From the NCBI GenBank assembly GCA_026066175.1, contig GCA_026066175.1_4721.2: 64,000 bases of DNA. The stretch is one strand, 5' to 3'. The stretch comes from a phage. Below are positions 2,121-59,309 of this stretch, one piece after another; the stretch's first letter is position 1, and every line of letters begins with the position of its first letter. Under the pieces are notes generated by a model. It did no database searches and was not told the origin of the DNA. It saw nothing but the letters and a program-made list of their open reading frames with translations. The position numbers and the translations under genes were made by a program.

Positions 2121-4718
2121 TTATAACGTGACTGTACCTAATTTGGTTGTCTTATTGAGATTAATGACAGATATCTGGGTATCGCTGGTCGTGATGGTGC
2201 CAATATTAACGCGCTGTCCTTTATCATCCTCTTGCTTGTGGATGGTTAACTCCAGCTCTAACTGGTTACCGTTAGGAACAACGGAAACGTACCATGTTTT
2301 ATTACCCGGGAAGCTATTATAGTCTTTTAGGTTATAATGGCCTTTAGGTAAGGTCATGACCTTACCGGCAAACAAGCAAGTGATGTCTTCGTTGACGTAA
2401 ACGTCGAAACCGGAAGAAGCGATGACTGTTGAGGTCATTATTCGAGACGTAACCATATCAGTAATGTAGTCATCGATTGTGGTACCTATGACATTGAATA
2501 CTTGCCCACCGTTACCCATAATGGCCGACTCGCTAGTGTTTACGTAGCCGATACCCCAAGTCGGATGAATGTTCCAGCGGTACCCACTGTTTTGTAAATA
2601 TGTATACATGTCCTCATAGGCCGCATTCACCCAACTACCATCACTTTTTCGTCCAGCCCTAAATTGGAATGTGTTGCCATTTCCAGATGTCCCTCGGCCA
2701 AGCGGGACATGTCCCGCTACTAACCAACCATCCGTACTTTGCATATATGCGAACGAACCGTACGCTCTGTTATCAGCCCAAATATTCACGGTATCAACAC
2801 GCTCAACGTAGGCGATTACCTTTTGTACGCCAGTTATAGCGATTGAACCCTTGCGTGCCGACACATTAACTTCTGCGATTACAACACCCATTTTACGCTG
2901 GCTGCCACTAAACCCCAATACAACCATTAAACACGGTGCGTTTGTTGCTTCAGGAGGGATTGTTATCGATTGTTTCCAGTCAGTGATTCCGTTGAGTTTT
3001 GTTCCAGTGTATGCGTTCCAGACGGTTTGTCCAGCCGATTTCAGATTCTGTTCAGAAATAGAAATGCTATCGCCCTCAGGGATTAACGTGTCGTAATTAA
3101 GACCGGTGTTACTGGATAGACGATTGTCATTTAAGTAAGATCCACTGAGTGTGACGTTATTGTTACGATATATTGTCAAGAATGGCGCAGCCAGAGCGTC
3201 TAATACCGTAAAGTTACTTGATGGCATGAAACCATAGACATCGATACCATTACCGCGATAATGGTAGTTTGTCCAACTACCTTGATAACTTACGGTACGC
3301 CCATCGTAGTGACCTTGTCCAGCGCTACTGCTAGACAACGTGTATATCTTGGTTGCTGATAGAAATGCGAGATACCCATGAGCCGCCAAAGCTCCAACAA
3401 CCCTGTCTTTTATCTTTAACCAAGCTGAAGTATATAACGTACTGTCGGGATTCATTTTGGCTATTTCATCGTAAGCTGTGCCTGCGAAGTTTCCGATAGT
3501 GTACGTACGTATATCCGGCTGTCCGTTATTGTCGTTCTGTACAGCAATTACTTGCCCAGAATCATTGATATCGATATTACCGATACAGTTGTGAGCCCCC
3601 CACACCCAATATCCATCTTTATAATTGGATTCTCCTTGTGTGAATGTTGATGGTCCTCGCCACGCGATGCCGTTCGATTCGGCGTAGTAGGTCGCTTGCC
3701 CCGATCCGGGATTCATGGCGTATTTGTTATTGGTTGGGTCAAAATCGATGTAAAAATGATGCATTCCTTGACGTTGATGATTGTTCTGATCATTTGTCCA
3801 CCACGATGAACCGACCAGAATTCGCGCTTTACCATTTTTTACAGTGGACCATAAACGTATTGCAGCGCGCCAGATGATTTGACCGATCCCGTTAGACGGG
3901 AAACTATTCGCACTTATACGGTTACAGACTATGAGTTCGCTGCTATTGTTTACTTGAGTCCCTTCAATTGTAACACCGTTTATGTTAGTGATCAGTGTTG
4001 CCGATACACTACCCCCTGTAGGGGCGATAGAGGAACGTTGAACGGTGTAAATTTTTAGTGATAATTTATAGCCGTCCCTAACAGCAATCCCAATGTAAAT
4101 AGTCCCGTTAATTTCCCAACAACAAACATCGGGCATCGTTTCTTTGAAATCGGATAAAGCACCATCGATATACATTGCAACGTGTTTACTGGCATCGAAT
4201 GTACCATCCGTTAACGCGATGAACATTTTGGCGTTATTACCGTTGATATCAGCCGCTAATCCGAGTAGTATGTTGTTCTGATGACAGTAGATGGCTTTAG
4301 GTGCTAGATCCAACATAGCCGGTTGGTACTGTCGGCTTGTCGGTATTACGCTAGTAACTGCACCATTTTGATCCGTTTTACAAATAACGTAATATACGCC
4401 ATGTATGATGCTGTTTGTCGCCGACCTTAGTAGGACAATCGTCCCGTCAGATTCACGACATATACCGTAATGACGATAGTCGGTGATTAAGCCGATAGCA
4501 CCATCAGCAGAGCCTTCAATTGCCAGAGGAAAATAACTTTGGTCCCCAACCTGTTCGATATCGGTTACGTCGATATCGATGTATTTTTCCATCTCAGTGT
4601 TGAACTCAGCGGTACTGTAGGCACCGAGATCGCTCGCCTTTAGTCCCGTTGGGTTGTCGCGACTGGCGATACGCGTAGTAACGCTACTCACCAGTTCGCT
4701 GAACTTTTTCATTGCCAT
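2121..4718 (-). CDS. large tail fibre/tailspike-like protein (putative receptor-binding protein)
   Basis: 865-aa ORF inside the fibre cassette. N-terminus (SELVSSVTTRIASRDNPTGLKASDLG) carries the same RDNPxxVTxAQ-type motif as the neighbouring fibre genes, followed by a large non-repetitive domain. SD gaggtg 5 nt upstream of ATG. Confidence 0.55.
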   Translation of the reverse strand: MAMKKFSELVSSVTTRIASRDNPTGLKASDLGAYSTAEFNTEMEKYIDIDVTDIEQVGDQSYFPLAIEGSADGAIGLITDYRHYGICRESDGTIVLLRSATNSIIHGVYYVICKTDQNGAVTSVIPTSRQYQPAMLDLAPKAIYCHQNNILLGLAADINGNNAKMFIALTDGTFDASKHVAMYIDGALSDFKETMPDVCCWEINGTIYIGIAVRDGYKLSLKIYTVQRSSIAPTGGSVSATLITNINGVTIEGTQVNNSSELIVCNRISANSFPSNGIGQIIWRAAIRLWSTVKNGKARILVGSSWWTNDQNNHQRQGMHHFYIDFDPTNNKYAMNPGSGQATYYAESNGIAWRGPSTFTQGESNYKDGYWVWGAHNCIGNIDINDSGQVIAVQNDNNGQPDIRTYTIGNFAGTAYDEIAKMNPDSTLYTSAWLKIKDRVVGALAAHGYLAFLSATKIYTLSSSSAGQGHYDGRTVSYQGSWTNYHYRGNGIDVYGFMPSSNFTVLDALAAPFLTIYRNNNVTLSGSYLNDNRLSSNTGLNYDTLIPEGDSISISEQNLKSAGQTVWNAYTGTKLNGITDWKQSITIPPEATNAPCLMVVLGFSGSQRKMGVVIAEVNVSARKGSIAITGVQKVIAYVERVDTVNIWADNRAYGSFAYMQSTDGWLVAGHVPLGRGTSGNGNTFQFRAGRKSDGSWVNAAYEDMYTYLQNSGYRWNIHPTWGIGYVNTSESAIMGNGGQVFNVIGTTIDDYITDMVTSRIMTSTVIASSGFDVYVNEDITCLFAGKVMTLPKGHYNLKDYNSFPGNKTWYVSVVPNGNQLELELTIHKQEDDKGQRVNIGTITTSDTQISVINLNKTTKLGTVTL

Positions 4719-5740: not shown

Positions 5741-5782
5741 TATCGAAAAATAAAAAGAAGGAAGGGTGGGTAGAACCCACCC
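5741..5782 (-). terminator. intrinsic terminator downstream of fibre gene 5788..7941
   Basis: Hairpin gggtggg-tagaa-cccaccc (5764-5782) followed on the minus strand by a T-rich tract (plus strand aaaaataaaaagaaggaa, 5745-5763), starting 5 nt after the stop codon. Confidence 0.65.
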
Positions 5783-5787
5783 ATCCG

Positions 5788-7941
5788 TTATAGCGTTTCG
5801 AAGTCTTTTGCCTTGATGACCGACTGGAAGTTCGCCAGGAATTCTTTCAACAACGCTTGGAATACCGTGCGGAACGCTGTATTCTTCTGCAGACTGGTTA
5901 GATAATCGTTAGCGAGATAATCGCTAAGCTTACCGATCTTCTGCATCTTCTGACCGTCGTCGTTCTCTCCGGGTTCTTGGCTGTTAACGTTAGCCCATTT
6001 GATCCCTTCGAGATCGCCATCGGCAAGGAAGTTAGCCGGGGTTTCATCATCGTTCAGGATCTTAATCGTATCGCTGGATTCGATGCCACCGTAAGCTTCC
6101 AGAAGCTGGTTAACCGTCAAGGTATTCGTGTTGATGGAACCATTAGCACCATCGATGCCGATACCCGTACCGGTAATCGTGGTTGCAGAAAGATCAATCG
6201 GACCGGTTAACTTACCACCGCTGATGGGTAACGCACCGACCTGCGCAGCCGTGTGGGTGTGGTTAGCCAATGCCGCAAATGCCGCAATAGACTTGTACGT
6301 CGAATACGGCGTCATGTACGCGGTCTGGTTGGTGTTATCAGCAGCTTGAACGTCGGTTGCAACGCTGAAGTTCTGAACATTCCCTAAACCAACCTGATCC
6401 TTCGTGACTTCGTGTGGGTTCGTTTTATCGACAACGTGTGCTGCAAAACCATCCCCAGCCAAAGCGATAATCGCCGCTTTCGTTGCTGCCGGTGTCATGT
6501 AACGATCTGCCGCTGTACCAGCTTGCGCTTCAGCATCCGATGCAACAGGATAGTTACCAACATTCCCTAATCCGACTTGAGTTTTAGTAACCTCGTGCGG
6601 GTTGTTGGTGTTGGCAATGTGACTGCTGAAACCTTGACCCGCCATTTGTTCGATAGCATAACGAACCAACAGTGGTGTCATGTACTTGTTCGTGACCTGA
6701 CCGTCGATAGCTTCCTGAGTGGTTGCGATACCGAAGTTTTGAACGCTTCCTAATCCCACTTGGGTCTTGGTGACGTTATGCGGGTTGTTGGTATCAGCCA
6801 GGTGTTGTGTTACTGTCGGGGTAATCAATGCAGCAATAGCATCCGCCACCAATGCAGGTGTTACGTATTTGTTCGTTGCCGTACCGGCTTTCGCTTCCGC
6901 GCTCGTTGCGATACCGTAGTTTTGGACTGAACCCAATCCTACCTGTGCCTTCGTAACACCGTGAGGGTTACTCTTGTTTTCGGTATGCGAGGTTAACGAG
7001 GTGTTGAGTGCATCAATACGCGCGCTTAAGCCATCGGTGATTGCTTTGATTGCTGCTTTCACCCCTGCTGGGGTTGTGTACAGGTTGGTTGCTGTTCCGG
7101 TAACAGTTGTAGTGCTGTCAGCAACACCATAGTTCTCAACACTCCCCAACCCTACCTGGGCTTTTGTTACCTTGTGTGGGTTGTTAAGGTTACTGATGTG
7201 TGCAGCAGCGCTATCACCGCTCAGGTTAGCGATCATTTTACGGGTCATCGCTAACGTCATGTACAGGTTTTCACCGATGCCGTCAAGATCGCTTTCGGTA
7301 GCCAGACGGTAGTTTAATACGTTTCCTAGCCCCACCTGCTCTTTCGTCACCCCATGGGGATTGTCACGACGTTTCTCGTGTTGCAGCAATGCGGTCATTG
7401 CTTTATTGAACCCTTCTTCCAGGGGTTCTCTCAATGATTCAATTGCAGCAACCACGTCATCCCACGTCATTGTGTCGGTTTCGACATTATGTTGGTGGTT
7501 GATTGGCGGGAATACGGAAGGAACGTCGGCAACCTTTTCCCAGAACGTCACACGGGGATCGTAAAGGTTGTTGGCTAGAACGTTAAGAATTTGTTGTTGA
7601 TCAAGTGTAAACTCACCCCCCAGTGAATAGTAGTTCAGTTGCAACTGTCCACTGAATGCGGTATCCAACAGCATGATGGAACCGTATAATTCCAGGCCGG
7701 TCAGCGCAGCCATGGCACGGAAGGGGTGAGTGCATAAAAAGTCAACGCCTTCTTCCAGATACGCGTTTGTCTCCGGGTTGTAGATCTTTAACCCATTACG
7801 AAAATATGGCGCGTATTTAGGAACGAGAAAGTTAAATCCGGTCCCCGTGGAAGGACGGACAGTGACGAGTTCTTCTGGAACCCATGCGCCATCCAAATTC
7901 CCCTGCGGGTTATACGGAAGGCGTTTAATTTCATCTGTCAT
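5788..7941 (-). CDS. tail fibre protein with tandem fibre repeats
   Basis: 717-aa ORF; at least six copies of the NPHxVTKxQVGLGxVxN(Y/F)...AGTAxxxYxTP repeat. Its N-terminal ~170-aa domain is related to that of 62..2107, and it has a distinct C-terminal domain (HTHTAAQVGALPISGG...). SD-like aaaggg upstream. Confidence 0.75.
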   Translation of the reverse strand: MTDEIKRLPYNPQGNLDGAWVPEELVTVRPSTGTGFNFLVPKYAPYFRNGLKIYNPETNAYLEEGVDFLCTHPFRAMAALTGLELYGSIMLLDTAFSGQLQLNYYSLGGEFTLDQQQILNVLANNLYDPRVTFWEKVADVPSVFPPINHQHNVETDTMTWDDVVAAIESLREPLEEGFNKAMTALLQHEKRRDNPHGVTKEQVGLGNVLNYRLATESDLDGIGENLYMTLAMTRKMIANLSGDSAAAHISNLNNPHKVTKAQVGLGSVENYGVADSTTTVTGTATNLYTTPAGVKAAIKAITDGLSARIDALNTSLTSHTENKSNPHGVTKAQVGLGSVQNYGIATSAEAKAGTATNKYVTPALVADAIAALITPTVTQHLADTNNPHNVTKTQVGLGSVQNFGIATTQEAIDGQVTNKYMTPLLVRYAIEQMAGQGFSSHIANTNNPHEVTKTQVGLGNVGNYPVASDAEAQAGTAADRYMTPAATKAAIIALAGDGFAAHVVDKTNPHEVTKDQVGLGNVQNFSVATDVQAADNTNQTAYMTPYSTYKSIAAFAALANHTHTAAQVGALPISGGKLTGPIDLSATTITGTGIGIDGANGSINTNTLTVNQLLEAYGGIESSDTIKILNDDETPANFLADGDLEGIKWANVNSQEPGENDDGQKMQKIGKLSDYLANDYLTSLQKNTAFRTVFQALLKEFLANFQSVIKAKDFETL
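6339..7389 (-). repeat. in-frame coding tandem repeats inside the fibre gene
   Basis: Repeated ~45-60-aa units are visible in the translation of 5788..7941. Confidence 0.6.
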
Positions 7942-9323: not shown

Positions 9324-9338
9324 ACAAGACAAACATAA

Positions 9339-9370
9339 CCCTCCTCCAACCCGTAAGGGAAGGAGGAGGG
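9339..9370. terminator. conserved GNRA-capped hairpin element, copy 1 (bidirectional terminator candidate)
   Basis: ccctcctcc-aa-ccc-gtaa-ggg-aa-ggaggaggg with cataa/catatg flanks, between convergent genes (stops at 9323 and 9380). Confidence 0.6.
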
Positions 9371-9379
9371 CATATGCCG

Positions 9380-18416: not shown

Positions 18417-18451
18417 CCGTTCGTTAAAAAAAAAAAATAACACATAGTTAA

Positions 18452-18485
18452 CCTTCTCCCCAACCCGGAAGGGAAGGGGAGAAGG
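18452..18485. terminator. conserved GNRA-capped hairpin element, copy 2
   Basis: ccttctcccc-aa-ccc-ggaa-ggg-aa-ggggagaagg between convergent stops (18416 and 18503); preceded on the plus strand by an A12 run (18426-18437), which is a U-tract for the minus-strand transcript. Confidence 0.65.
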
Positions 18486-18502
18486 GCTATGCGCTATTTA
18501 AC

Positions 18503-24673: not shown

Positions 24674-24885
24674 TGATTATCCTCCCTCAAACAGACAACA
24701 TACATGCATAATGCACGTCCCTTTTCTTGTTATCATCACAACGACAGTCGACGGTTTCAGCATCATTCTTAGCGCGAGAACGACCTTACGTGTTGTCTAT
24801 GCCTTTTTTCATTGAAGGCTTCTGTCACCTAGGTAATGTAAGCGTCAAATTTTTTCTAATCTAACCCAGCATAACAGCATAATAA

Positions 24886-24915
24886 CCTCCCTCAGCCCGT
24901 AAGGACCGAGGGAGG
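24886..24915. terminator. degenerate copy (3) of the conserved hairpin element, downstream of the capsid-candidate gene
   Basis: cctccctc-agcccgtaaggacc-gagggagg with cataataa and ttatg flanks, inside the 340-bp non-coding stretch after the stop at 25015. Confidence 0.5.
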
Positions 24916-25014
24916 TTGACTTATGTATCACGGTGCCGGATGAATGTCCGGTGTAATGAAACCATCCGCAACGTTGTTTTCAAGAACTTCATCCAACGAA
25001 GCAGCTCCGGTATT

Positions 25015-27237
25015 TCAGTTAGTCTGAACCGGCAGCTTGATGTTTTCAGTGTAGACCTTACGCAGGTTCACAACGTTGATCAGACCCAGCAGCGGGCAGT
25101 TGTTCACGAAACGGCAGCGCGGCTGAACCATGGTTTCTTTAGAAACCTGACCGTTACGAGTAACCTGAGCAACGGATACCAGTTCCGGTACGTACAGGAA
25201 CATACCGAAGGTCAGCGGATCCGGAGAACCCTGGATACCACGAGACAGGGTCACGAAGATCTTGTCGCGCAACATGACGTTCGGGTTGTCTACAACCACG
25301 AAGTTGAAGCTTACACCCACGGTGCGGAAGTCACCATCGGTCTGCAGGAACTGCGGGATGTAGTTGTCGGTTGCTACTACGCAACGCGGTTTCTCATCAG
25401 CGTTGGAAGACAGCAGCTGCAGAGCTGGCTGATAACCAGACTCGGAGTACATGCGGTACGCCATTTCACGAATCACGTTCATGATCGCAGCGGATACTTC
25501 AGCACGACGTTCTGCAGTGGTGGTACCCTGAACGGATTTCTCCAGGTCCAGATCGATTTCTTCGAACCACGGACGAATCAGGTAACGACCGAAACCTTCG
25601 ATCTGAATGTCACCGAACTGACGGAAGCGAGAAGTTGCAACCGCTTTCAGGGCGTCTTTGTAGCTGAACAGTTTCTCAACCATCAGGTTGTCGAAACGTG
25701 CGTTAGCTGCTTGGATCAGAACATCCAGGTCAGCAGCGTTTTCTTCCCAATCCAGCGGACGAGGAATGGAGAACGGAGCCAGCAGGCCGATTGCGTAACG
25801 TTCTTGCTTCATGTTGAAGTCAAGATGTTTACCGCGTTCACGACGGTTGCTGTTGTTACGACGGATACGCAGTTCGTAACCCACCAGTTTGAAGCTCAGG
25901 TCTTCAGCCAGATCTTTGAATTCCTGGCTCTTACGCGGTTGTTCGATGTTGTCCTGGTCAACCAGACGATACAGTTCAGCGGTAGCGCCATTAACACGCA
26001 GACCCGCTTTCTCTACGTTGGAAGAACCGTAAACTTCGATCGCCAGCTGAGCAGCAGATTTCGCATCGATGATGTCCTGCAGCGCTTCAGCTTTCGCACC
26101 TTTAACGTCAACGGTGTTCTCATCAACGAAGATGGAGTGGGTGTCGAACGCCAGGGTCATTTTGCGGAAGTCGCCTTCCAGGGATTTCTGGAAACCGTTG
26201 GTGATCAGACCGGATACGTCGAACGGAACGTAAGAGGTTTTGCTGTGCTTGGTGGATTTAATTTCCACCAGGATTTTGGTCAGCGTGATCTGAGCATCCA
26301 GCGCGTCAGTGTTGTCGCTGTAACCGTTAGCCAGAATGCTATCGTCTTCAGCGATACCGATCATGTCGATCAGTTTATCAACCGCCAGGTAAGACGTTTT
26401 GTAAGTAACGCCTTTGATTTCGATGTCGCGCGGAGCAACGATGGTTTTATCAACGAAGTACTGCGCGTTAGCATCGTCAGCACGGTAGATCGGATGCAGA
26501 TCGGTCACGTCGTTGGACAGAACGTCGTTGTACATGAACGCATCCAGCAGCGGACGACGTACCCAATCAGCCGGAGTACCATCACCGTTACGACGCAGGT
26601 GGTTGAACACCAGCGGACGACGGAAGGAAACGTCATAACCGATCTGGTTCGGAGCCAGAACGATGGTGTTGTACAGTTCGTTACCCATGCGGCTCAGACG
26701 AGACGCCTTCACGTTGAACACAACGGAGTACGGCATCATGTCACGCAGTTCTTTCTGGTCGTAGGACAGCTGAACCAGTTCTTCAGATTCACAACCGCAG
26801 GAATCCGCAGCCATCATGACGAAGTTAGCGCTGTCAACATCACGGCCGGACGGCGAGGTGCTGATGTTCATGGAACGTGCTTGTTTAGCATATTCCACCG
26901 GGTTGCCATGTGCCAGCATGATCAGCGCTGCAGCGCGAGCCTGCTGTGCGTTCATGGTGAACAGCTGTTCTTCAATACGTTGCTTCTCTTCCGGAGTTGT
27001 GGTTTCGAAGCCCAGCATGGACAGAACCGGTTCTTCAGCTTTACGGATGTCGCTGCTGAAGCTCTTAACATCCATTTCGTTAACCAGTTTGTCCATGGAT
27101 TTGAAATCAACCTTAGAAGCAGATTCCATAGACAGGAAGGTGTTTTCCAGACCTTTGTCTGCTGGTTTGCTACCATTAGCGGTCAGGAACTGGCGAGTGG
27201 CCGCGACCTGTTGGCTAAGAAGGGTTTTATCATTCAT
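25015..27237 (-). CDS. putative major capsid protein (highly expressed virion protein)
   Basis: 740-aa ORF with markedly optimised codon usage (CTG, CGT, GGT, AAC, TTC, GAA) compared with its neighbours; size matches jumbo-phage major capsid proteins; SD taaagga. The opposite strand carries a long stop-free antisense ORF, typical of highly biased genes. Identity not verified by similarity search. Confidence 0.5.
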   Translation of the reverse strand: MNDKTLLSQQVAATRQFLTANGSKPADKGLENTFLSMESASKVDFKSMDKLVNEMDVKSFSSDIRKAEEPVLSMLGFETTTPEEKQRIEEQLFTMNAQQARAAALIMLAHGNPVEYAKQARSMNISTSPSGRDVDSANFVMMAADSCGCESEELVQLSYDQKELRDMMPYSVVFNVKASRLSRMGNELYNTIVLAPNQIGYDVSFRRPLVFNHLRRNGDGTPADWVRRPLLDAFMYNDVLSNDVTDLHPIYRADDANAQYFVDKTIVAPRDIEIKGVTYKTSYLAVDKLIDMIGIAEDDSILANGYSDNTDALDAQITLTKILVEIKSTKHSKTSYVPFDVSGLITNGFQKSLEGDFRKMTLAFDTHSIFVDENTVDVKGAKAEALQDIIDAKSAAQLAIEVYGSSNVEKAGLRVNGATAELYRLVDQDNIEQPRKSQEFKDLAEDLSFKLVGYELRIRRNNSNRRERGKHLDFNMKQERYAIGLLAPFSIPRPLDWEENAADLDVLIQAANARFDNLMVEKLFSYKDALKAVATSRFRQFGDIQIEGFGRYLIRPWFEEIDLDLEKSVQGTTTAERRAEVSAAIMNVIREMAYRMYSESGYQPALQLLSSNADEKPRCVVATDNYIPQFLQTDGDFRTVGVSFNFVVVDNPNVMLRDKIFVTLSRGIQGSPDPLTFGMFLYVPELVSVAQVTRNGQVSKETMVQPRCRFVNNCPLLGLINVVNLRKVYTENIKLPVQTN

Positions 27238-27386
27238 TGAAAGTATCCTTTACAGATTTAACTTATATAAGTCGGTCGATAGACCATAGCGTACACGCGT
27301 GCATGCGCCACTATAGTATCAGTAAACACTTACCGTTATTGAGGTTGTGATACAACACTAAAAATGCCGCATAACTTTTCCCTACG

Positions 27387-28007
27387 TCACAAACGACGCA
27401 GGCGATAATGGATGGAACGATTGGTGCAATATGAACGGAACAGCGGTAATTGCGCAACTTCCGCAAGACTCATATTAATTCGCAGATGTTCGATAACCGC
27501 GCTGTAGTTATCGGCGATACGATCGCTCAGTAACTCTTCTGCCAATAAAGGAAGACAATCGACAACGATGGCGATCACATCCTCATTAACATAACGCACC
27601 CGAACATTGAGTGGACGTTTGTCTGGGCCGTAAGTTGGATCCGCCAAACGACGTTCAATATCGCGTGGATAGCTCGTCAGTAAATGGTAATAACCATTGT
27701 CATAACGATTGATGTACTCACACAGCACATCAACATTCTTCTCTGGCGGCAAACCTGTTTCGTCATAGTGATACGCAAACATACCACCAAGCAGGTTGTT
27801 AAGATGAACCGCAGGGTTCGCTTGTTCGTGTTCTTTCGTGATGAAGAAAGGCACGTTCTGGGCTGCGAAATAAAAACCTACATCATTGGGCGATAGTATG
27901 CCGAAAAGACTTTTAGGGTCTAATAACACCTGTAAGTCATCACGCGCATTTCGAATAATCGCGTGTTCTACCCAATTCGGAACGACGAGATATCGGAGTT
28001 CCTTCAT
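27387..28007 (-). CDS. hypothetical protein
   Basis: 206-aa ORF; SD agagg 8 nt upstream. Confidence 0.6.
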   Translation of the reverse strand: MKELRYLVVPNWVEHAIIRNARDDLQVLLDPKSLFGILSPNDVGFYFAAQNVPFFITKEHEQANPAVHLNNLLGGMFAYHYDETGLPPEKNVDVLCEYINRYDNGYYHLLTSYPRDIERRLADPTYGPDKRPLNVRVRYVNEDVIAIVVDCLPLLAEELLSDRIADNYSAVIEHLRINMSLAEVAQLPLFRSYCTNRSIHYRLRRL

Positions 28008-29657: not shown

Positions 29658-29682
29658 AACGCAAAAAAAAAATCGTACGGTT

Positions 29683-29714
29683 CCCTCCTCCAACCCGGAA
29701 GGGAAGGAGGAGGG
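29683..29714. terminator. conserved GNRA-capped hairpin element, copy 4
   Basis: ccctcctcc-aa-ccc-ggaa-ggg-aa-ggaggaggg between convergent stops (29657 and 29732); an A10 run lies upstream on the plus strand. Confidence 0.65.
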
Positions 29715-29731
29715 TTATGACCGTTATGGTG

Positions 29732-31174: not shown

Positions 31175-32008
31175 TTACTTAGCTTTCGGATTATACGGAC
31201 TAACATGTTGTTGCATTCGTTGGATTGTTTCGTAGTACGGGTTATAATGAGTGAACATATTGTTGTATGGATGGTAGCCGTAAAGCGCATTTTGCCTTGC
31301 CGGTGAGAAACCTTTTTGAGAAGGACGATTTGAATTTACTGCGAGCACGTAGTAAACCAAATTTTGATGGTCGAATGTTCCTTCGTTTTTGAAGGTGTCA
31401 GCATAGGCGCTTACCGCAGGAGCAAGTCTATCACCATCGGTTGTAATGATCGTACCATCCGGGTAAACTTCTCGAACGATACACCATGTTCCGATGAGAA
31501 CATCTTCGGGTGTCTTATTACTGTATCCGACTGTAACGGTAAGGTAAGTATCGAATCCTCCTGAGCGCTGCGGATGTCGATAAATTGGGCCAGTCGTTTC
31601 TGCTTTATCGGTTACGGTTTTTTCGTAAGGACACTTCTTGATTGCTTTGATGTAAATATCGGGAATCTCTAATACCGCCTTATCAGGATGAATTCTAAAA
31701 TGATTCTTGAGTAAGCCCAAAAGGTTGGTTGCTACCACGTCGTGAGGTAGTACCCAATAACTGGTAGGGGAGTCATCGCCGTCTCTCTTGGAGAAGATGA
31801 CTGCCTTGTTATCGTCGTCTGGTAGACTGAAGAAAACGATTGACTCAATAGGCATAGCCAGCTCACCACAACAGGGGTCAGCGGATAACACCCAATTGTA
31901 TTTGTTGTCCGTTTCGTATAAATGTTCTGTTCTGTCGATACTACGATCCTTCAATTGGATGTAGCGTTCACGTTGTTTCTTGGTTAATTTACGGTAGATA
32001 GTGGTCAT
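31175..32008 (-). CDS. hypothetical protein, paralogue family B
   Basis: 277-aa ORF with SD aaggag; shares the N-terminal MT(D/T)(I/V)Y(R/T)KL and the PIY(R/V)HP...YPDG(T/R)I motifs with 32094..32867. Confidence 0.65.
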   Translation of the reverse strand: MTTIYRKLTKKQRERYIQLKDRSIDRTEHLYETDNKYNWVLSADPCCGELAMPIESIVFFSLPDDDNKAVIFSKRDGDDSPTSYWVLPHDVVATNLLGLLKNHFRIHPDKAVLEIPDIYIKAIKKCPYEKTVTDKAETTGPIYRHPQRSGGFDTYLTVTVGYSNKTPEDVLIGTWCIVREVYPDGTIITTDGDRLAPAVSAYADTFKNEGTFDHQNLVYYVLAVNSNRPSQKGFSPARQNALYGYHPYNNMFTHYNPYYETIQRMQQHVSPYNPKAK

Positions 32009-32093
32009 GTTAAGCTCCTTGATTACGGTAAGGATGATTTCGGTTTTGTGATGATGGTAGGACCACTTTGTTTAGGATCCTACCAGTACGGGA

Positions 32094-32867
32094 TTATTCA
32101 TGATCAGTGTAGAAATGGTGAGGATAGCCGGAGTACGATCCTGCGTTACCGGCTATGGATTCTTTCTGGGAATCGACGACGAGCGCGTAGAACTGTCGGG
32201 AATTTGTTAACGTTGAGAAATAAGAGGAAAGGACTTTTTCGTTCAACGCATCGCACGGTAGACAGGTACGCCCACAGAACGTCGTAATACGGCCATCCGG
32301 ATAGATCTCACGGATCATACGCCATTCACCGATATCAACCGGCGATGGCGCTGCTACACCACCTGTTATCGTTAAATAACGATCATACGTGGTATGACAT
32401 TCTGGATGTACGTAAATTGGCTTATTGGCCTCAACTTCTTCAGGAGCATAGCGTCGACCGAGAAGTTCAATAACCTCCAGATAGATTGTAGGCAGATCGC
32501 AAAGAACCCCTTCCTCTTTACGTTTCTTCGTGATTCGAGGACGAACCTCATTGATAACGTAGGCGAGTTCATTCAGCGCTTCTTGCGCTGGTAGCACGAA
32601 TAAACGGTCCGGTTTGTCGGACAAGTCTTCATTTACGTAAACGTAACAAACATCGTCTTTAGGCGCGTAGAAGAAGCGAGAGACCTTAAAGGTTTCCGTA
32701 GTACGATAACCGAGACGCGTTTGGTCCTGCACCAGAGAAAATATCCAGCGACGTCCTTCGTCCTGTTCAATGATATCATTGAACATCTTTGTTTGATCAG
32801 GAAGTTGATATTCTTCCTGTAATTTAGCAAGTGCTTCATTATCCAGTTTGGTGTAAACATCAGTCAT
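32094..32867 (-). CDS. hypothetical protein, paralogue family B
   Basis: 257-aa ORF; related to the 31175..32008 product over its full length. Confidence 0.65.
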   Translation of the reverse strand: MTDVYTKLDNEALAKLQEEYQLPDQTKMFNDIIEQDEGRRWIFSLVQDQTRLGYRTTETFKVSRFFYAPKDDVCYVYVNEDLSDKPDRLFVLPAQEALNELAYVINEVRPRITKKRKEEGVLCDLPTIYLEVIELLGRRYAPEEVEANKPIYVHPECHTTYDRYLTITGGVAAPSPVDIGEWRMIREIYPDGRITTFCGRTCLPCDALNEKVLSSYFSTLTNSRQFYALVVDSQKESIAGNAGSYSGYPHHFYTDHE

Positions 32868-32894
32868 GATAGTATCCTCGATTAGTAAGGTTGG

Positions 32895-33299
32895 CTAGTC
32901 TATCTTAAGCCAGATTGATGGTAAATGGAAATAGACACCGTCGTCTATTTGTTTTTGTGTTAACGGGGTTGGAAGTTTAGTGATGATGTTGTCGATCGAT
33001 TCCTCAATGTCACTTGTTAGAACGTCGATGTGGTAATAGCGAGCGATGCGTCCGTTACGTTCTAGCCAAAACAGACGAACGAAATCACTATTTTTATTAA
33101 TCGCATTCATAAACACGATTTGATGAAGCAGGATCATTCTTGACGAGGGGTAATCGTCAGGACGCGGAGTCATCACCAGTTCCCAACGTTTCCGTCGCAC
33201 GCCTTTTTTGAATTGACTCGTTACATTTGAACCACTTTTACCTAAGTTTATAACAAATTGCTTTAGACGATACGGTGTGTTTCTGTAAATATCGGTCAT
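32895..33299 (-). CDS. hypothetical protein, paralogue family B (N-terminal-domain-only member)
   Basis: 134-aa ORF; N-terminus MTDIYRNTPYRLKQF and C-terminal ...HLPSIWLKID align with the first ~130 aa of the two longer paralogues and stop at the LP(S/T/D)IY(L/I)K domain boundary. Confidence 0.55.
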   Translation of the reverse strand: MTDIYRNTPYRLKQFVINLGKSGSNVTSQFKKGVRRKRWELVMTPRPDDYPSSRMILLHQIVFMNAINKNSDFVRLFWLERNGRIARYYHIDVLTSDIEESIDNIITKLPTPLTQKQIDDGVYFHLPSIWLKID

Positions 33300-33383
33300 T
33301 GATTATAGCTCCAGGTTATTATCACTAAGGTAATATAGTCGTGAAATAAACTGGAGTAATAGAAATAATAAGACGGCATAAGA

Positions 33384-33414
33384 CCCTCTCCCAACCCGGA
33401 AGGGAAGGGAGAGG
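33384..33414. terminator. conserved GNRA-capped hairpin element, copy 5
   Basis: gcataaga-ccctctccc-aa-ccc-ggaa-ggg-aa-gggagagg, 6 nt downstream of the stop of 33420..34787; identical over ~39 nt to copy 7. Confidence 0.6.
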
Positions 33415-33419
33415 AAGTA

Positions 33420-34787
33420 TTAAACGGTTGGACGAACGGTGTTGTCTTTTTCCGGTGCAAGCCAGAGTGTGACGGTACCGTGGCAGGTCCATTGGGGTTC
33501 ACGTACAGAAGAACCCGCCATCGTAACAGCGCAATCGGTACGCATAACAACGCCGTAAGCTTCGCAAAGGTTATTGTCTTGCATCCAAACAACTTTAGCA
33601 GGCATGCCAGGATACAGTAAATCCATGTTGGCATGTTCCCATACCAACTGCATCGTTCGACCGCGTAACCCAGCAGTATTACTTAATTCCCGCCAACGGT
33701 TATCCGTTACCCGGCCCATCCCTTTTGCTACCTTCACGTTATCACTACGTTCTTCCGTCACATACTCGCTTACGTTCACGGTACGACTGATGATCGTATC
33801 ACCGCCCTTCGATAACGTCATTCCCTGGCTCATCTGACTCGCTGAAACAAAGCGTCCACCCGCATTACCTAACAATGAAGCTGCGTTGCTGATATCGCTG
33901 ACCGACGCACCTCGTGTACACGCGATCTCCACGTATTTGTCACGATTGATCCAGGTATTTTCCATGCCGGGAAACATATCGGCCGGATAATTGTAAAAAA
34001 TCGCCGTACGTCGACCGTCGGAGAAACGGGTTTCGTCATACAGAGGGTAGATATACAAATACGGTGATTGGTAATAGCAACCAACGTCCGCTGAATAAAT
34101 ACCGACCTGGTTCTGGATCTTATCAACAAGATCCATCGCGTTGGTACCATGAGGAAGAATCAATAACTTGAACAAATCATTGTTATTCGGTGCGACAATA
34201 TCAACACCCTGCATTTTGAAGCCGGTATCCGCTTCAACAGCAGAAAGGATTTTACTGAATTCGAGTCGCAGTACATCCAGAACTTTCGATCCAGTATAGT
34301 TCTCACCGGTTTCTGACTGCATGAAGCTTTCAAGAACAGGATCGAACAACTGGAATTGAAGATCGACCATCTGCTCGTAATCTTTCTTCGCAGAATCGGT
34401 TGCAGTACGTTCATCGGTTGCGGACATACGACTGTCTACGGTGGTTAAACAAACTGCCCGATAGACATAAGCTTGTGCGGCATCGTCTACGGTTTGGCGT
34501 TGTCCACGCATCAGACTGTACGCCTGCACGATGACGCGCATTTTAAGTTGTTGCTGGTACGGTAAAATGTATTTTCCGTAACTGCCCGGAGGGAACTTTA
34601 CAGAGATATAAAGTTCATCTCCTGCGTTACGTTCATAGTCTCGATACGTGTGGACTTGAGTCACTAAAGGAACAGACACCGTCATTGACGGCGTGATTAA
34701 TTCCGCGGTGACTTTATACGCAACAGCAACTGCTTCCTGCGCAAATGTACCGATATACCGTCCTAACGGCGTCTGTTTGTAATCCAT
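33420..34787 (-). CDS. hypothetical virion protein
   Basis: 455-aa ORF with ATG start, followed by the hairpin element. Confidence 0.65.
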   Translation of the reverse strand: MDYKQTPLGRYIGTFAQEAVAVAYKVTAELITPSMTVSVPLVTQVHTYRDYERNAGDELYISVKFPPGSYGKYILPYQQQLKMRVIVQAYSLMRGQRQTVDDAAQAYVYRAVCLTTVDSRMSATDERTATDSAKKDYEQMVDLQFQLFDPVLESFMQSETGENYTGSKVLDVLRLEFSKILSAVEADTGFKMQGVDIVAPNNNDLFKLLILPHGTNAMDLVDKIQNQVGIYSADVGCYYQSPYLYIYPLYDETRFSDGRRTAIFYNYPADMFPGMENTWINRDKYVEIACTRGASVSDISNAASLLGNAGGRFVSASQMSQGMTLSKGGDTIISRTVNVSEYVTEERSDNVKVAKGMGRVTDNRWRELSNTAGLRGRTMQLVWEHANMDLLYPGMPAKVVWMQDNNLCEAYGVVMRTDCAVTMAGSSVREPQWTCHGTVTLWLAPEKDNTVRPTV

Positions 34788-38636: not shown

Positions 38637-38682
38637 CGCAGATTCCTGTTTGAAAGATAAGATATCACATGATGGTCGACAG

Positions 38683-38716
38683 CATAAAGCCCACCCCGAA
38701 GGGCGGGCTGTTTATG
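38683..38716. terminator. hairpin cataa-agcccaccc-cgaa-gggcgggct-g-tttatg downstream of the 1127-aa gene
   Basis: 9-bp GC-rich stem (one mismatch) plus 5-bp A/T flanks that extend the stem, 9 nt after the stop at 38725; it has the same CATAA...TTATG flanks as the conserved element family. Confidence 0.5.
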
Positions 38717-38724
38717 CGTACGGA

Positions 38725-44591: not shown

Positions 44592-44626
44592 CAAGTCAAA
44601 AGATAACCGGATATTAACGGCATATA

Positions 44627-44658
44627 CCCTCCTCCTTCCCTTCCGGGTTGGAGGAGGG
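44627..44658. terminator. conserved GNRA-capped hairpin element, copy 6 (canonical sequence on the minus strand)
   Basis: Plus strand reads ccctcctcc-tt-ccc-ttcc-ggg-tt-ggaggaggg, the reverse complement of the canonical element; 8 nt downstream of the stop of 44666..45958. Confidence 0.6.
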
Positions 44659-44665
44659 ATTTAGC

Positions 44666-45958
44666 TTATTTTGCTTTCTCGGTTACCGCGTTGAAGTATT
44701 TCGCTGCAGCAAATACCGCCTCCGCATACTGACGGACAGAGGCACGGAGGATCTTGGTTCCTAATACCGAGCTTAAACGAGCCATTTCTGTTACAGCCGC
44801 GATATAAGGACGTACGGTTTCACGATCGGCCTCAGGTAACTTGTCGAGCATTTCGCCCCACTTCGTTTTGATTTTCATTCCGTTGAGTTTAGCATCTCGT
44901 CCTACAGTGCTTGCCAAACTTTCAACTTTATGCAAATATGTCGGCTCCACCCTATGGAATGCCTTCAGATATGCCGTCAATGCGCTTTTCAGCTCATTCC
45001 CATCGTGGAAAATATTCACATTTTCGATATTATCTGTTACGGTGTCAACAACTTCGATATGAACATCCTTCACCAAAGCACATGCTTTAATGACATCTTT
45101 CTCTTTTTCTAACGCATCCAGCCCTTTAACGACATATTGTTTTCCGCCGCTTTCTGGAAGTCTGAACGCTCTCAGCGCAGCTTTAGTGGTCTGAAGATAC
45201 TTATCTAGAACACTATCGAGCGTTGTTAAATCAGTTAGGACATTGATGTCGTAGTTGATGTCACCGATCATAGTAAATAGGAAATCTGACGTCGCCGCAC
45301 TTGCAGCTAATTGTTCGATATGTTTGCTAACGGATGTTGCATTAACCGATTTTGCGTTCGGGAACATATTAACCATATTCCCGGTAGGCTTCTCTAGCTG
45401 CTTGATCTGACGTTCCCCTTTATTGACTTCGGATGCGATTTTGGTGATCTCAGCATAAGCCAGAACGAGATTCTTGAAAAGCGTCTGGAGCAACTTAAAC
45501 AATTGTTCAGCAATATTCGCGATGGTGACCCAGACCGCATACAGTGCTTGCGCTGCACGTTCCTTGAAGCCTTCCAGCACGATAGCTTGGCCTTCGACTA
45601 ACTTATCATTAGCCTGGAACATGTCTTCATCAGACATACCCAGGTTAGCTGCCGATGTTGATGCGATTTGGCGGATAAGCGCAACGTCGCTGGCGCGGGC
45701 TTCTGTGATCGTTGATGCGATTACGTAGGCGGTATCTTCCAACGTTGCTGATGTCCGTACAGCGATTTCAGCCAGTTCGCTGTTCTCGTCGATGCTGTCG
45801 TCGGTATGTCGAATCACCAACTCAACTTCATCTTCCTCAATTTCTGCGTTGGGGTCTTGTTGCTCGGGTGAAATCGATGCAAGAACATCTTCAGCGCTGA
45901 GTAGTGCGAGTTCAAAAGCGTTTTTATTGATGTTATCAAAAAGAGAAATACGGGCCAT
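44666..45958 (-). CDS. virion protein, paralogue family C
   Basis: 430-aa ORF with SD aaggaa; acidic N-terminal region (PEQQDPNAEIEEDEVELV...) followed by the conserved family core. Confidence 0.65.
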   Translation of the reverse strand: MARISLFDNINKNAFELALLSAEDVLASISPEQQDPNAEIEEDEVELVIRHTDDSIDENSELAEIAVRTSATLEDTAYVIASTITEARASDVALIRQIASTSAANLGMSDEDMFQANDKLVEGQAIVLEGFKERAAQALYAVWVTIANIAEQLFKLLQTLFKNLVLAYAEITKIASEVNKGERQIKQLEKPTGNMVNMFPNAKSVNATSVSKHIEQLAASAATSDFLFTMIGDINYDINVLTDLTTLDSVLDKYLQTTKAALRAFRLPESGGKQYVVKGLDALEKEKDVIKACALVKDVHIEVVDTVTDNIENVNIFHDGNELKSALTAYLKAFHRVEPTYLHKVESLASTVGRDAKLNGMKIKTKWGEMLDKLPEADRETVRPYIAAVTEMARLSSVLGTKILRASVRQYAEAVFAAAKYFNAVTEKAK

Positions 45959-45967
45959 GTGGGTTCC

Positions 45968-47287
45968 TTAACCTTTAGTATAGGCTTTAACGAGGGTGTT
46001 AATAAAAGAAGTTAATGCACGAAGGTACTGATAAGCGAATTGGTTTTCAATACGTTGCTCTTTACTGCAGAGCATGATCGCCCGTTTCACCAGTTTGGGA
46101 TATATTTCAACGTACGGTTTATAACTGTCGTCGTATTGCTGCGTATCGAATTTTTTCATGGCTTCATACTGCAGCTTTTCCATCTGACGAACACGAGCAC
46201 GATCGAAGATCTTGGAGAACGCACGTCCGCGTTGGGTGATCGCAATCAGATCTTTCGCTAACGAAAGCGGTTTAACGCTACGGAAATCATCCGGTGTGGG
46301 TAGCGTGTAGTTTTCTGGATCGCTATCCCATTCGGTCGCTGCGTCTTCAACCACGACATCCAATTTCAGATAATTTTCAATCGCGGCAAGAACGTTGTCT
46401 TTTGCCGCATTGAATTCTTTTAAGAACACAGCAGCATTAACATAACGAATACGTTTACCAGAAACCGCCGGTGTAACCACATCACTCCCGTCAACGGAAC
46501 CTCTGTTCTCCAATGCGGTTTTCAGTGTATCCAGAAACGACATGTAGTCCACAGGAAGTTGGTCAACACGATCTAAACGAAAATCGAATGTCTTCACACC
46601 AAGACCGGTGGTAAGGTCGTAACGTGCACCGCCTGCCATGATTCGGTTATAGTTCTCAAGGTTCTTCTTGATTTCGTCAACACCACCGACATGATTGCGA
46701 TTGGAAAAGAGGATACGCCAACCGGCTTTGAACGGCACGGTAACCGTTTCTTCTTTACCTTTCGGAAGTTTTTCTAACGCTTTGATCGCATTCTGGAAAT
46801 TGCGGGTTTCATCATAGATGATCCGCGTTAATCCTTCCAGGACAGCAGCCAGTTGCAGAACAATATCAACAATGATATCCCAGATCTTTTTCAACGCTCG
46901 AACGACGGTGTCTTTGAACCCTTCAACAACCAACGCTTCACCCACGGTGATGTTGTCAGTAGGACGAAGCATTGCATCGGAAGGCAGACCTAAAGCGATT
47001 GAGGCGGATTCTTGAACGTTACGTACCAATGCAACGTCGCTGTAGTTAGCCGTCTCAATCGTTGGTGCAACATCAAAACTGATTTCTCGTAATGCTTCAA
47101 CAGCAGGGAAAGCACGATCGAGCGCCTCTTCATGTTCATCGATGTTCGCTAAACGGAGTTCAACCCCATCAGCGTCAATGACTTCGGTGGTAGGCTCTGC
47201 TGCAAGCGCCTCGGCAACGATGGGATCCTTCTCAAAAGCTTCAAGGCTAATATCGCCTTGTGTAGCAAATAGTGGTATACGTACCAT
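45968..47287 (-). CDS. virion protein, paralogue family C
   Basis: The ATG at 47287 (MVRIPLFATQGDISLEAF...) is preceded by tggaga; the track start at 47311 is a TTG with no SD. Collinear with 44666..45958 (RI(S/P)LF...DVAL(I/V)R...EGFK(E/D)). Confidence 0.65.
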   Translation of the reverse strand: MVRIPLFATQGDISLEAFEKDPIVAEALAAEPTTEVIDADGVELRLANIDEHEEALDRAFPAVEALREISFDVAPTIETANYSDVALVRNVQESASIALGLPSDAMLRPTDNITVGEALVVEGFKDTVVRALKKIWDIIVDIVLQLAAVLEGLTRIIYDETRNFQNAIKALEKLPKGKEETVTVPFKAGWRILFSNRNHVGGVDEIKKNLENYNRIMAGGARYDLTTGLGVKTFDFRLDRVDQLPVDYMSFLDTLKTALENRGSVDGSDVVTPAVSGKRIRYVNAAVFLKEFNAAKDNVLAAIENYLKLDVVVEDAATEWDSDPENYTLPTPDDFRSVKPLSLAKDLIAITQRGRAFSKIFDRARVRQMEKLQYEAMKKFDTQQYDDSYKPYVEIYPKLVKRAIMLCSKEQRIENQFAYQYLRALTSFINTLVKAYTKG

Positions 47288-47335
47288 GTGATGTCTCCAG
47301 TAATAATTCAAAAGATAAATCAGCGCAGCATAAGA

Positions 47336-47367
47336 CCCTCTCCCAACCCGGAAGGGAAGGGAGAGGG
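47336..47367. terminator. conserved GNRA-capped hairpin element, copy 7
   Basis: gcataaga-ccctctccc-aa-ccc-ggaa-ggg-aa-gggagaggg-aatatg, 23 nt downstream of the stop of 47390..48721. Confidence 0.6.
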
Positions 47368-47389
47368 AATATGTCAGTTTACTAACTGA

Positions 47390-48721
47390 TTATTTCTGTG
47401 CTGCGTCAGCCGGTTTTTCAGCCGCCTGGCCGCTGTACTCTTTCAGCATTTTAGCAACGCCGTCCAGTACTGCGTTACCCGCCTGAACACCGTACTTCAT
47501 CAGGCTAACCTGCGGGTTGATGTAGCAAGAACGTGCGTCTTTCAGTGCAGACAGCACAGTTTTAACACGCTGTTTCTCTTGAGCAGAAACTTCGCCTTTC
47601 TTAGCCAGTTCAGCTTCCATATCGTCGCCGAATTTAACAGCGTCTTTGAAGCCCTGGGATTTCTTACCGATGTTACCTTTCGCAGCCAGCAGTTTATCGG
47701 CCAGCGCTTCAACGCTGTTGATCACCGCAGCCATCTGGTTCGGGGACAGTACATCGGCTTCCTGTTCCATCACGGTGATTGCGTTATTGCCGCGTTCCCA
47801 GGTCACTTTACCGTCGGTGGTTTTGAATCCCCAACCGTTCGGACCTTTCACATCAGCGATCGCAGGCGCGTTCAGTTTGTCGGTGTACTCAGTATGTGAT
47901 TTAGACTTAACGAGTTCAACGAATTTATCCGCACGATCGTCAGCCGCCTTCATTGCTTTCTCGAAGGTATCTGCGATTTTGCTTGATGCACCAGCGATAT
48001 CGATATCGCCAATATAACCGGTAACAGTGGTGCCCAGTTTAACTTTCGCGTTCTTCGGAGAGCCTTTACGTTTGGCGATCATTTCTTTCAGTTTAGCCGC
48101 ACGTGCTTTCAGTTTGGTTGCACCGTCGAAGATACGATCGATGAACTTCACGAAGTTGTCCCAGGTGGATTTCAGGAAGTTCTTAATTGCAGTCCACAGT
48201 TTCTGCCACCATTTCTGTTCTTCCAGGAAGATCATGTTGGTTGCATCATAACGGGAAGCGGAACCGCCGAAGCTTTCGAAGGAAGGCATGGTTTCCGGCA
48301 GTTTGAAGCCGATAGTACCACACAGACGTTTCAGATTACGCATGTGTTCTTGCGCGGTCTGTGCAGACATACCACCGTCTTTCAGATAGCTTTCGGTCGC
48401 AACAACGGTTTCCGTCATTTCGTCCATGGCTTCGTCCATGGCTTCAGCGGTTTCGTCGTCTTTTGCGATTTCGATAACAACAGCATCAACCTGCTCGATG
48501 TCACCACGGACTTCGATAGCCAGTTCGGTTTCAGCAGCGGTGTCTTCAGCGATTTCAGCACGTTCGGTCAGTTCAGCCACAACGGTTTCATCGCCTGCAG
48601 CAGCATCGGCTGCCGGTTCTGCTTCAACGGTTGCCGCAGCTTCCGGATCGATCTCAGCAGCCAGTTGAACCAGCTGTGCGTTAGATGGATTTGCGACAAG
48701 ACGATCAAAAATAGAAGGCAT
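47390..48721 (-). CDS. abundant virion protein, paralogue family C, with acidic AxE-rich N-terminal region (propeptide-like)
   Basis: 443-aa ORF with SD taaagga; strongly optimised codon usage; N-terminal ~100 aa are acidic and alanine-rich with many A-x-E triplets (AAEIDPEAAATVEAEPAADAAAGDETVVAELTERAEIAEDTAAETELAIE...). Confidence 0.65.
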   Translation of the reverse strand: MPSIFDRLVANPSNAQLVQLAAEIDPEAAATVEAEPAADAAAGDETVVAELTERAEIAEDTAAETELAIEVRGDIEQVDAVVIEIAKDDETAEAMDEAMDEMTETVVATESYLKDGGMSAQTAQEHMRNLKRLCGTIGFKLPETMPSFESFGGSASRYDATNMIFLEEQKWWQKLWTAIKNFLKSTWDNFVKFIDRIFDGATKLKARAAKLKEMIAKRKGSPKNAKVKLGTTVTGYIGDIDIAGASSKIADTFEKAMKAADDRADKFVELVKSKSHTEYTDKLNAPAIADVKGPNGWGFKTTDGKVTWERGNNAITVMEQEADVLSPNQMAAVINSVEALADKLLAAKGNIGKKSQGFKDAVKFGDDMEAELAKKGEVSAQEKQRVKTVLSALKDARSCYINPQVSLMKYGVQAGNAVLDGVAKMLKEYSGQAAEKPADAAQK

Positions 48722-48764
48722 AATTTTGTTTCCTTTACAATAAATTGCACATTAGCTAATGCGG

Positions 48765-48791
48765 CTTAAGCAAGGCTAAAGCTTGCTTAAA
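48765..48791. terminator. hairpin cttaagcaag-gctaaag-cttgcttaa overlapping the stop codon of 48787..49317
   Basis: 9-bp inverted repeat with a 7-nt loop, lying between the stop of the 176-aa gene and the start of the highly expressed 47390..48721 gene. Confidence 0.4.
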
Positions 48792-55596: not shown

Positions 55597-55616
55597 AACA
55601 AATAGCGCAAACATAA

Positions 55617-55648
55617 CCCTCCTCCAACCCGTAAGGGAAGGAGGAGGG
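55617..55648. terminator. conserved GNRA-capped hairpin element, copy 8
   Basis: acataa-ccctcctcc-aa-ccc-gtaa-ggg-aa-ggaggaggg-aatatg between convergent stops (55596 and 55658); identical to copy 1 over ~40 nt. Confidence 0.6.
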
Positions 55649-55657
55649 AATATGCTG

Positions 55658-59263: not shown

Positions 59264-59278
59264 AAAACACTCCGTTGG

Positions 59279-59309
59279 CCTAGGGGAAGGCTGAAAACCT
59301 TCCCCTAGG
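59279..59309 (-). promoter_or_regulatory. perfect 12-bp-stem hairpin cctaggggaagg-ctgaaaa-ccttcccctagg between two large genes
   Basis: Exact 12-bp inverted repeat with a 7-nt loop, 13 nt after the stop of 59323..62118 and 15 nt before the ATG at 59263; the SD lies 4 nt downstream of the stem. Confidence 0.55.

Follow-up and report, generated by a model that had tools for sequence, protein, structure and literature searches.

A gene of 740 codons at positions 25015 to 27237 of a 64,000-nucleotide (nt) stretch of phage DNA (contig GCA_026066175.1_4721.2 of GenBank assembly GCA_026066175.1; hereafter, the window) uses a far narrower set of codons than the genes around it, as does a second gene at positions 47390 to 48721, and the locus thus raises the question of what the first gene encodes and why its codon usage is so restricted. 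An initial annotation made from the sequence alone had proposed that this gene encodes a major capsid protein. The results presented here indicate, with a probability of about 97%, that its product is the major capsid protein, of HK97 fold, in a Goslar-like nucleus-forming jumbo phage of Escherichia coli and that its codon bias reflects translational selection. The gene and its parts are as follows.

25015..27237, minus strand: major capsid protein gene, 740 codons and a TGA stop, orthologue of Goslar gp41 (from the reading frame, Pfam, PDB, identity with Goslar and codon bias)
27246..27250, minus strand: Shine-Dalgarno sequence AAGGA, 8 nt before the capsid ATG, read directly off the sequence
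26767..27237, minus strand: capsid codons 1-157, N-terminal region presumably removed by the prohead protease
25018..26766, minus strand: capsid codons 158-740, mature HK97-fold subunit (N-arm, P, A and I domains, C-arm), matching the modelled residues of Goslar gp41

Identity of the gene product

The open reading frame (ORF) runs in a single frame from its ATG start to its TGA end, and both ends had been placed exactly in the initial annotation. The sole Pfam match of the protein was PF25620 PhiKZ_MCP ("Bacteriophage PhiKZ major capsid protein gp120"), with a score of 722.6 bits (cut-off 27; E = 4.5e-217) and an alignment over profile positions 2-635 of 635, and the corresponding PHROGs match was family 3231, "major head protein" (E = 1.3e-163). 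In comparisons with PDB sequences, the protein aligned end to end with a 740-amino-acid (aa) "Major capsid protein" chain (11bt_Ar, 1622 bits). Entry 11bt and three further entries carry the full-length 740-aa match, the 583-aa chain of entry 36za matches residues 158-740, and remoter matches were to 8bfl and to phiKZ gp120 (8y6v). A megablast search with the gene found only Escherichia phage vB_EcoM_Goslar, with 96.1% nt identity over the whole gene, and the matching Goslar product is labeled gp041 "major head protein" in RefSeq (YP_009820726.1). The two proteins are 98.4% identical, differing at 12 of 740 positions, with 5 of the substitutions in the presumed propeptide and the other 7 in the mature subunit. 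In a tblastn search of a phage collection, the capsid family was found in 219 records, and all matches other than Goslar were below 60% identity. Among the matches listed were jumbo-sized (approximately 220–310 kb) phiKZ-type phages of Pseudomonas, Erwinia, Salmonella, Serratia, Ralstonia and other hosts, with identities for phages other than Goslar of 32% or less. The proposal of a major capsid protein was therefore right.

Size and codon bias, taken alone, would also fit a contractile tail sheath, which the initial annotation had left open, as sheath proteins are abundant too; the Goslar tail sheath, gp218, is a protein of approximately 77 kDa present at 282 copies (doi 10.64898/2026.04.21.720040). 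However, the homology searches returned capsid families only, with no sheath family in Pfam (E <= 0.1) or PHROGs (E <= 0.01), and all PDB matches were capsid proteins, including solved capsid chains to which the present protein is 98% identical. Further, gp218 lies beyond gp25–gp67, the portion of the Goslar genome that matches the window. The probability that the gene product is a sheath is thus negligible.

The window is collinear with Goslar gp25–gp67 and approximately 87% identical over the aligned DNA. This level of identity, together with an insertion of 2 kb and divergent accessory genes (described below), indicates from the sequence comparison that the source is not Goslar but a distinct Goslar-like phage in the same genus.

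The site recognized by the phiKZ prohead protease is an S/A/G-x-E motif, and two motifs of this type, GCE (residues 148-150) and SEE (residues 151-153), are present in the capsid protein just before residue 158. In the structure of the Goslar capsid determined by cryo-electron microscopy (cryo-EM), gp41 has a canonical HK97 fold with an N-arm and P, A and I domains, residues 1-157 are without density and the model begins at residue 158, from which its authors inferred proteolytic processing like that of phiKZ (doi 10.64898/2026.04.21.720040). By analogy, the N-terminal 150 to 157 residues or so of the present capsid protein would be removed by the prohead protease, whereas the HK97 fold of the protein is established through near-identity with a solved structure (98%).

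Codon usage of the capsid gene and of a second gene

Codon usage was compared among 43 non-overlapping ORFs of the window, with weights for the codon adaptation index (CAI) taken from 27 E. coli K-12 genes of the S10/spc/alpha/str region (25 ribosomal-protein genes, tufA and fusA; 4,556 codons). The two lowest values of Wright's effective number of codons (Nc) were those of the capsid gene (30.9) and the gene at 47390..48721 (32.7), as compared with 37.6 for the next lowest ORF and a median of approximately 50. The same two genes had CAI values of 0.789 and 0.753, respectively (z = 6.8 and 6.2 relative to the other ORFs), whereas the remaining 41 ORFs had values of 0.392 ± 0.058 with a maximum of 0.505. 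On the same scale, values of 0.789 for E. coli fusA, 0.52 for rpoA and 0.22–0.37 for seven cryptic gsp genes were obtained. Both the narrowness of the codon set in these two genes and its host-optimal character, as initially described, were thus borne out by calculation against highly expressed E. coli genes.

The nature of the bias was evident from individual codons of the capsid gene, in which 94% of Leu codons were CTG, 89% of Pro codons were CCG, all Phe codons were TTC and Arg was encoded only by CGT or CGC, with AGA, AGG, CGA, CGG, ATA, CTA, TTA, GGA and GGG absent. When the same two proteins were recoded 5,000 times with the background codon usage of the window, CAI values were 0.392 ± 0.016 for the capsid protein and 0.443 ± 0.022 for the companion, so that the observed values stood at z = 24 and z = 14, respectively. 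Amino acid composition therefore does not account for the bias, as CAI of the recoded sets is far under that observed.

The G+C content at third codon positions (GC3) was 0.60 in the capsid gene and approximately 0.49 elsewhere, and local G+C content was 0.50–0.53 at the capsid gene as compared with approximately 0.46 in its flanks, which would be in keeping with recent horizontal acquisition of the gene from E. coli or with a compositional island. However, the gene at 47390..48721 has an equally narrow codon set at an ordinary GC3 of 0.51, and GC3 is therefore not the driver of the bias. Moreover, the rows listed among the 219 matching phage records were phiKZ-type jumbo phages and included nothing that looked like a cellular relative, CAI rises with the number of copies measured over 34 genes (see below) and the bias has been kept in both this phage and Goslar through 68 synonymous changes. 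Acquisition from the host or a compositional island is accordingly considered highly improbable as the source of the bias.

The persistence of the bias was apparent from comparison of the two phages. Thus, the capsid genes differ at 68 codons synonymously, with CAI values of 0.789 here and 0.794 in Goslar, and 54 of these 68 swaps join codons that both have a CAI weight of at least 0.3 (e.g., GAC/GAT, TCC/TCT and CGC/CGT). Similarly, the gene at 47390..48721 and its Goslar counterpart are only 86.9% identical at the nt level and both have CAI values greater than 0.75. Codon bias has been maintained, therefore, through divergence from Goslar.

An open frame on the opposite strand offered another possible constraint on the capsid gene sequence.

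24916..27240, plus strand: 774-aa frame antisense to the capsid gene

This frame is the longest plus-strand ORF of the region and is free of stops over 2.3 kb, as a real overlapping gene would be. It is codon-aligned to the capsid gene, however, and its openness is a by-product of the codon bias of that gene, in which TTA, CTA and TCA are absent; no other sense codon gives a stop in reverse complement. In addition, the frame begins with TTG and has a low-complexity translation rich in V, R, F and Q. There is next to no likelihood that it is an overlapping gene that constrains the sequence.

Readthrough of the capsid stop, beyond which 28 in-frame sense codons precede a second TGA, was also considered and rejected. 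The 28-codon extension includes non-optimal codons (TCG, TTG, ACA and GGA), and 6 of its 7 codon differences from Goslar are non-synonymous, as compared with 12 non-synonymous and 68 synonymous differences within the gene.

Identity of the second gene

The second codon-usage outlier was identified as follows.

47390..48721, minus strand: orthologue of the Goslar gene for gp58, the dominant internal head ("inner body") protein of the PF12699 family

The protein matched PF12699 "phiKZ-like phage internal head proteins" with a score of 69.9 bits (cut-off 27), and its gene is 86.9% identical in nt and 86.5% in aa sequence to that of Goslar gp58. The gene adjoins paralogues corresponding to gp53–57 in a syntenic gp53–gp58 cluster. 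A single PF12699 protein predominates in Goslar, namely gp58, which is host-injected and numbers approximately 2,150 copies per virion, while its paralogues gp53–gp57 are present at approximately 50–330 copies per virion; the Goslar capsid has T=27 symmetry with gp41 at 1,615 copies per virion, as determined by cryo-EM and liquid chromatography-tandem mass spectrometry (doi 10.64898/2026.04.21.720040). These numbers agree with the earlier suggestion that the products of both outlier genes are made in very large amounts. By extension from Goslar, the two codon outliers would be the two proteins encoded in the window with the highest copy numbers per virion, and the capsid gene product, given its orthology and its CAI of 0.79, is predicted to be the most abundant protein of the shell.

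A hairpin was also noted next to the gp58 orthologue.

48745-48775, minus strand: hairpin between the gp59 and gp58 orthologues, TTAAGCAAG...CTTGCTTAA

The corresponding Goslar sequence is TTAAGTGA...TCACTTAA, and the two phages differ by two fully compensatory double substitutions, which supports, at the level of sequence comparison, conservation of an RNA structure immediately 5' to the highly expressed gp58 gene.

Codon adaptation and virion copy number

The relationship between codon usage and protein abundance was evaluated by pairing window ORFs with their Goslar orthologues by blastp and using copy numbers estimated by label-free quantification (LFQ) of Goslar virions (Table S4 of the Goslar preprint). 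CAI was correlated with copy number over 34 window ORFs (Spearman 0.72, p = 1.4e-6), and a similar correlation was noted for Goslar's own genes (Spearman 0.70, n = 39), which was 0.62 without the three top proteins. In Goslar, the CAI ranking was led by gp41 (0.794) and gp58 (0.782), followed by gp23 (0.711). The last of these, a DUF7941 protein of approximately 2,144 copies, is encoded just outside the window and provided an independent check, which the relation between CAI and abundance passed. Within the window, the third-highest CAI (0.505) was that of the orthologue of gp53, the second most abundant PF12699 protein. Thus, CAI ranks virion proteins by copy number in the Goslar-like lineage and in Goslar picks exactly the three proteins above approximately 1,600 copies, gp41, gp58 and gp23.

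Two points weigh against this interpretation. First, the relation is not strict, as is seen from the orthologue of gp66, a protein of the vertex binding complex.

62115-62555, minus strand: gp66 orthologue

The protein is present at approximately 1,000 copies by Goslar LFQ (110 were modelled) and CAI is only 0.48–0.53, with 0.48 for the gene in the window. Second, abundance in the present phage has been carried over from Goslar, to which the window is approximately 87% identical, and copy numbers here may to that extent be read only by analogy.

In nucleus-forming phages, messenger RNA (mRNA) is translated in the cytoplasm on host ribosomes, and no transfer RNA (tRNA) or transfer-messenger RNA (tmRNA) genes were found in the window with ARAGORN. 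Phage mRNAs would thus be read by host ribosomes and host tRNAs, so that the capsid gene has been pushed toward the codon set of the most highly expressed E. coli genes. By orthology with Goslar, approximately 1,615 subunits would form the T=27 head after trimming of the N-terminus by the prohead protease. The selection is for fast and accurate translation; it acts in the same way on the gp58-type internal head protein (approximately 2,150 copies), the only other window protein needed in like numbers, and is graded for less abundant virion proteins. Translational selection is the simplest mechanism that accounts for the codon bias, and it operates despite transcription of these genes inside a protein nucleus. 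Given its ranking of virion proteins by copy number, codon adaptation could offer an inexpensive initial means of predicting which virion or injected proteins are abundant in jumbo phages that have yet to be characterised.

Hairpins downstream of the outlier genes

Hairpins were recognised by direct reading of the sequence and by a sliding RNAfold scan of the window. Those that follow the two outlier genes, and the region upstream of the capsid gene, are as follows.

24884..24917, minus strand: terminator-like hairpin after the capsid gene, with a perfect 15-bp stem, a 4-nt loop and no U-tract
24867..24882, minus strand: tandem TTATGCTG TTATGCTG straight after the capsid hairpin; Goslar keeps TATGCCG in the same place
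47336..47367, minus strand: terminator-like hairpin after the gp58 orthologue, with a stem of 9+3 bp followed by TCTTATGCTG (z = -4.8)
27238..27386, minus strand: intergenic region upstream of the capsid gene with two TATG sequences (27370..27373 and 27285..27288), candidate late promoters

With an energy of -28.9 kcal/mol, the capsid hairpin, 97 nt beyond the stop, gives the strongest 40-nt fold of the window, and the 76-nt fold that contains it has an energy of -38.4 kcal/mol (z = -6.05). In the Goslar copy, 5 of the 15 pairs are altered and all are still paired (A-U, G-U and G-C changes); as read from the alignment, these altered pairs hold only on minus-strand RNA. The stem of the hairpin after the gp58 orthologue is identical in Goslar, with 2 loop bases different, and belongs to a CCCTCYCC..GGRGAGGG family.

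The suggestion that terminator hairpins follow both genes was upheld in part. Both hairpins are present, are conserved in Goslar and have the G+C-rich stem-loop of an intrinsic (rho-independent) terminator. Counting against termination of this kind, no U-tract was found just 3' of either stem, where the tails (AUUAUGCU... and UCUUAUGC...) have 4 U per 8 bases, and neither hairpin was flagged in a consensus terminator scan around both genes. No Rfam match was obtained in the whole window at gathering thresholds. The hairpins may terminate the phage's own polymerase, and the likeliest role of the one downstream of the capsid gene is to end the late transcript or to stabilise it.

The two hairpins belong to a family of strong G+C-rich palindromes, found in gaps right after stops by the sliding RNAfold scan, with the following members in the window.

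5759-5798
9337-9376
18451-18490
24883-24922
29681-29720
33383-33422
38681-38720
44625-44664
47335-47374
55615-55654
59277-59316

Besides the two outlier genes, at least nine other window genes thus have a similar downstream hairpin. The suggestion that the hairpins imply very high expression failed, therefore, as hairpins of this family follow many genes with ordinary codon usage and provide no evidence of high expression. Several members share the core CCCTCCTCC-TT-CCC-TTCC-GGG-TT-GGAGGAGGG, of which four copies with one mismatch at most were present as compared with a chance expectation of none, and four members of the family are at convergent gene junctions. The family probably represents phage terminators. 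This would not be surprising, since experimental mapping in the chimalliviruses phiKZ and 201phi2-1 has revealed terminator families that are conserved in sequence and in part bidirectional (PMC11512511).

Most of the family palindromes, including those after the capsid gene, the gp58 orthologue and seven or more further genes, are flanked by CATA (5') and TATG (3'), and the hairpins of both outlier genes are followed by TATGCYG in this phage as well as in Goslar. Late promoters of the phiKZ non-virion RNA polymerase need a TATG core, the G of which is +1 (PMC4666361), and the capsid genes of phiKZ and 201phi2-1 are each preceded by three stacked promoters (PMC11512511). The two TATG sequences upstream of the present capsid gene, which lie in a 176-nt stretch (27225..27400) that is 99% identical to Goslar, are by comparison putative late promoters for a non-virion RNA polymerase and would fit the stacked arrangement in phiKZ and 201phi2-1. 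The TATG flanks of the hairpins might likewise be late-promoter cores, and the tandem TTATGCTG could be either an extension of the palindrome base or a TATG restart promoter. A bolder and rather doubtful proposal is that the hairpins are combined terminator-and-restart modules, working in both orientations, at which one late transcript would stop and another would start at the hairpin base. The simpler view, that the flanking TATG merely extends the stem, fits the same evidence.

The gap of 341 nt 3' of the capsid gene (24674..25014) was examined for small ORFs, all of which were 45 aa or less and none of which was convincing. The middle of this gap has a further feature.

24674-24860, minus strand: sequence near-invariant between this phage and Goslar

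By contrast, the gp40 orthologue that follows has no more than 85% aa identity to its Goslar counterpart. The conserved sequence is probably the promoter and 5' untranslated region of the gp40–gp38 genes or an unannotated small RNA.

Other differences from Goslar

Three other regions in which the window departs from Goslar were noted.

31175-33299, minus strand: three ORFs of 277, 257 and 134 aa (G+C content 0.41–0.46) in approximately 2 kb where Goslar has the small gp47
55658-59320, minus strand: gp64 orthologue of 1,220 aa, as compared with 930 aa in Goslar
2121-4718 and 44666-47311: genes unevenly diverged from Goslar (gp26, 65% aa identity; gp56 and gp57, 71–74%; neighbours, 96–99%)

The three ORFs had no counterpart in Goslar gp22–76 and no match in Pfam or PHROGs, and the two largest had no tblastn match in 50,697 phage records; the segment looks like an insertion of ORFan accessory genes. 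The gp64 orthologue aligns with its Goslar counterpart over 552 aa only (73%) and appears to contain extra or replaced sequence. Its GTG start at 59320 overlaps the strong hairpin at 59277-59316, for which reason the true start is probably further downstream. Divergence from Goslar was strong for gp26, gp56, gp57 and gp64, and the unevenness of divergence points, as far as sequence comparison goes, to mosaic exchange or to fast evolution of some virion or injected proteins.

Comparison with known systems

The recurring hairpins resemble the terminator families of phiKZ and 201phi2-1 (PMC11512511), which are likewise stem-loops of shared sequence that follow many genes, some at convergent junctions, the likeness being one of recurrence and placement. 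The companion protein resembles the PF12699 proteins phiKZ gp93 and Goslar gp58 in its domain, its syntenic gene cluster and its orthology to the dominant, host-injected copy; in contrast with the capsid protein, it has diverged far more from its Goslar orthologue (86.5% aa identity).

The capsid protein shares with phiKZ gp120 (PDB 8y6v), the founding member of PF25620, its family and the HK97 fold and presumably, by orthology with Goslar, T=27 symmetry and the loss of an N-terminal propeptide to the prohead protease. The capsid proteins of Goslar and phiKZ are reported to be 25.8% identical in sequence (doi 10.64898/2026.04.21.720040). The present phage differs from phiKZ in its host, and for this reason the codon optimum of the capsid gene also differs.

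The closest known counterpart is Goslar gp41 (PDB 11bt, 11fg, 11mk, 11ml and 36za), which is also 740 aa long, is identical at 98.4% of aa and 96.1% of nt positions, and has a CAI of 0.79, adjoining gp40 and gp42 genes with orthologues in the same positions here, and a conserved downstream hairpin and upstream region. The differences from Goslar are the 12 substitutions in the capsid protein and, in the rest of the window, approximately 87% identity, the 2-kb insertion and the divergent accessory genes. Family, fold, copy number and processing are already established for this 98%-identical orthologue, and the result for the capsid protein is in this sense already known. The main value of the present analysis is correct annotation, by which the window is recognized as that of a Goslar-like chimallivirus with a capsid gene already known structurally through its orthologue.

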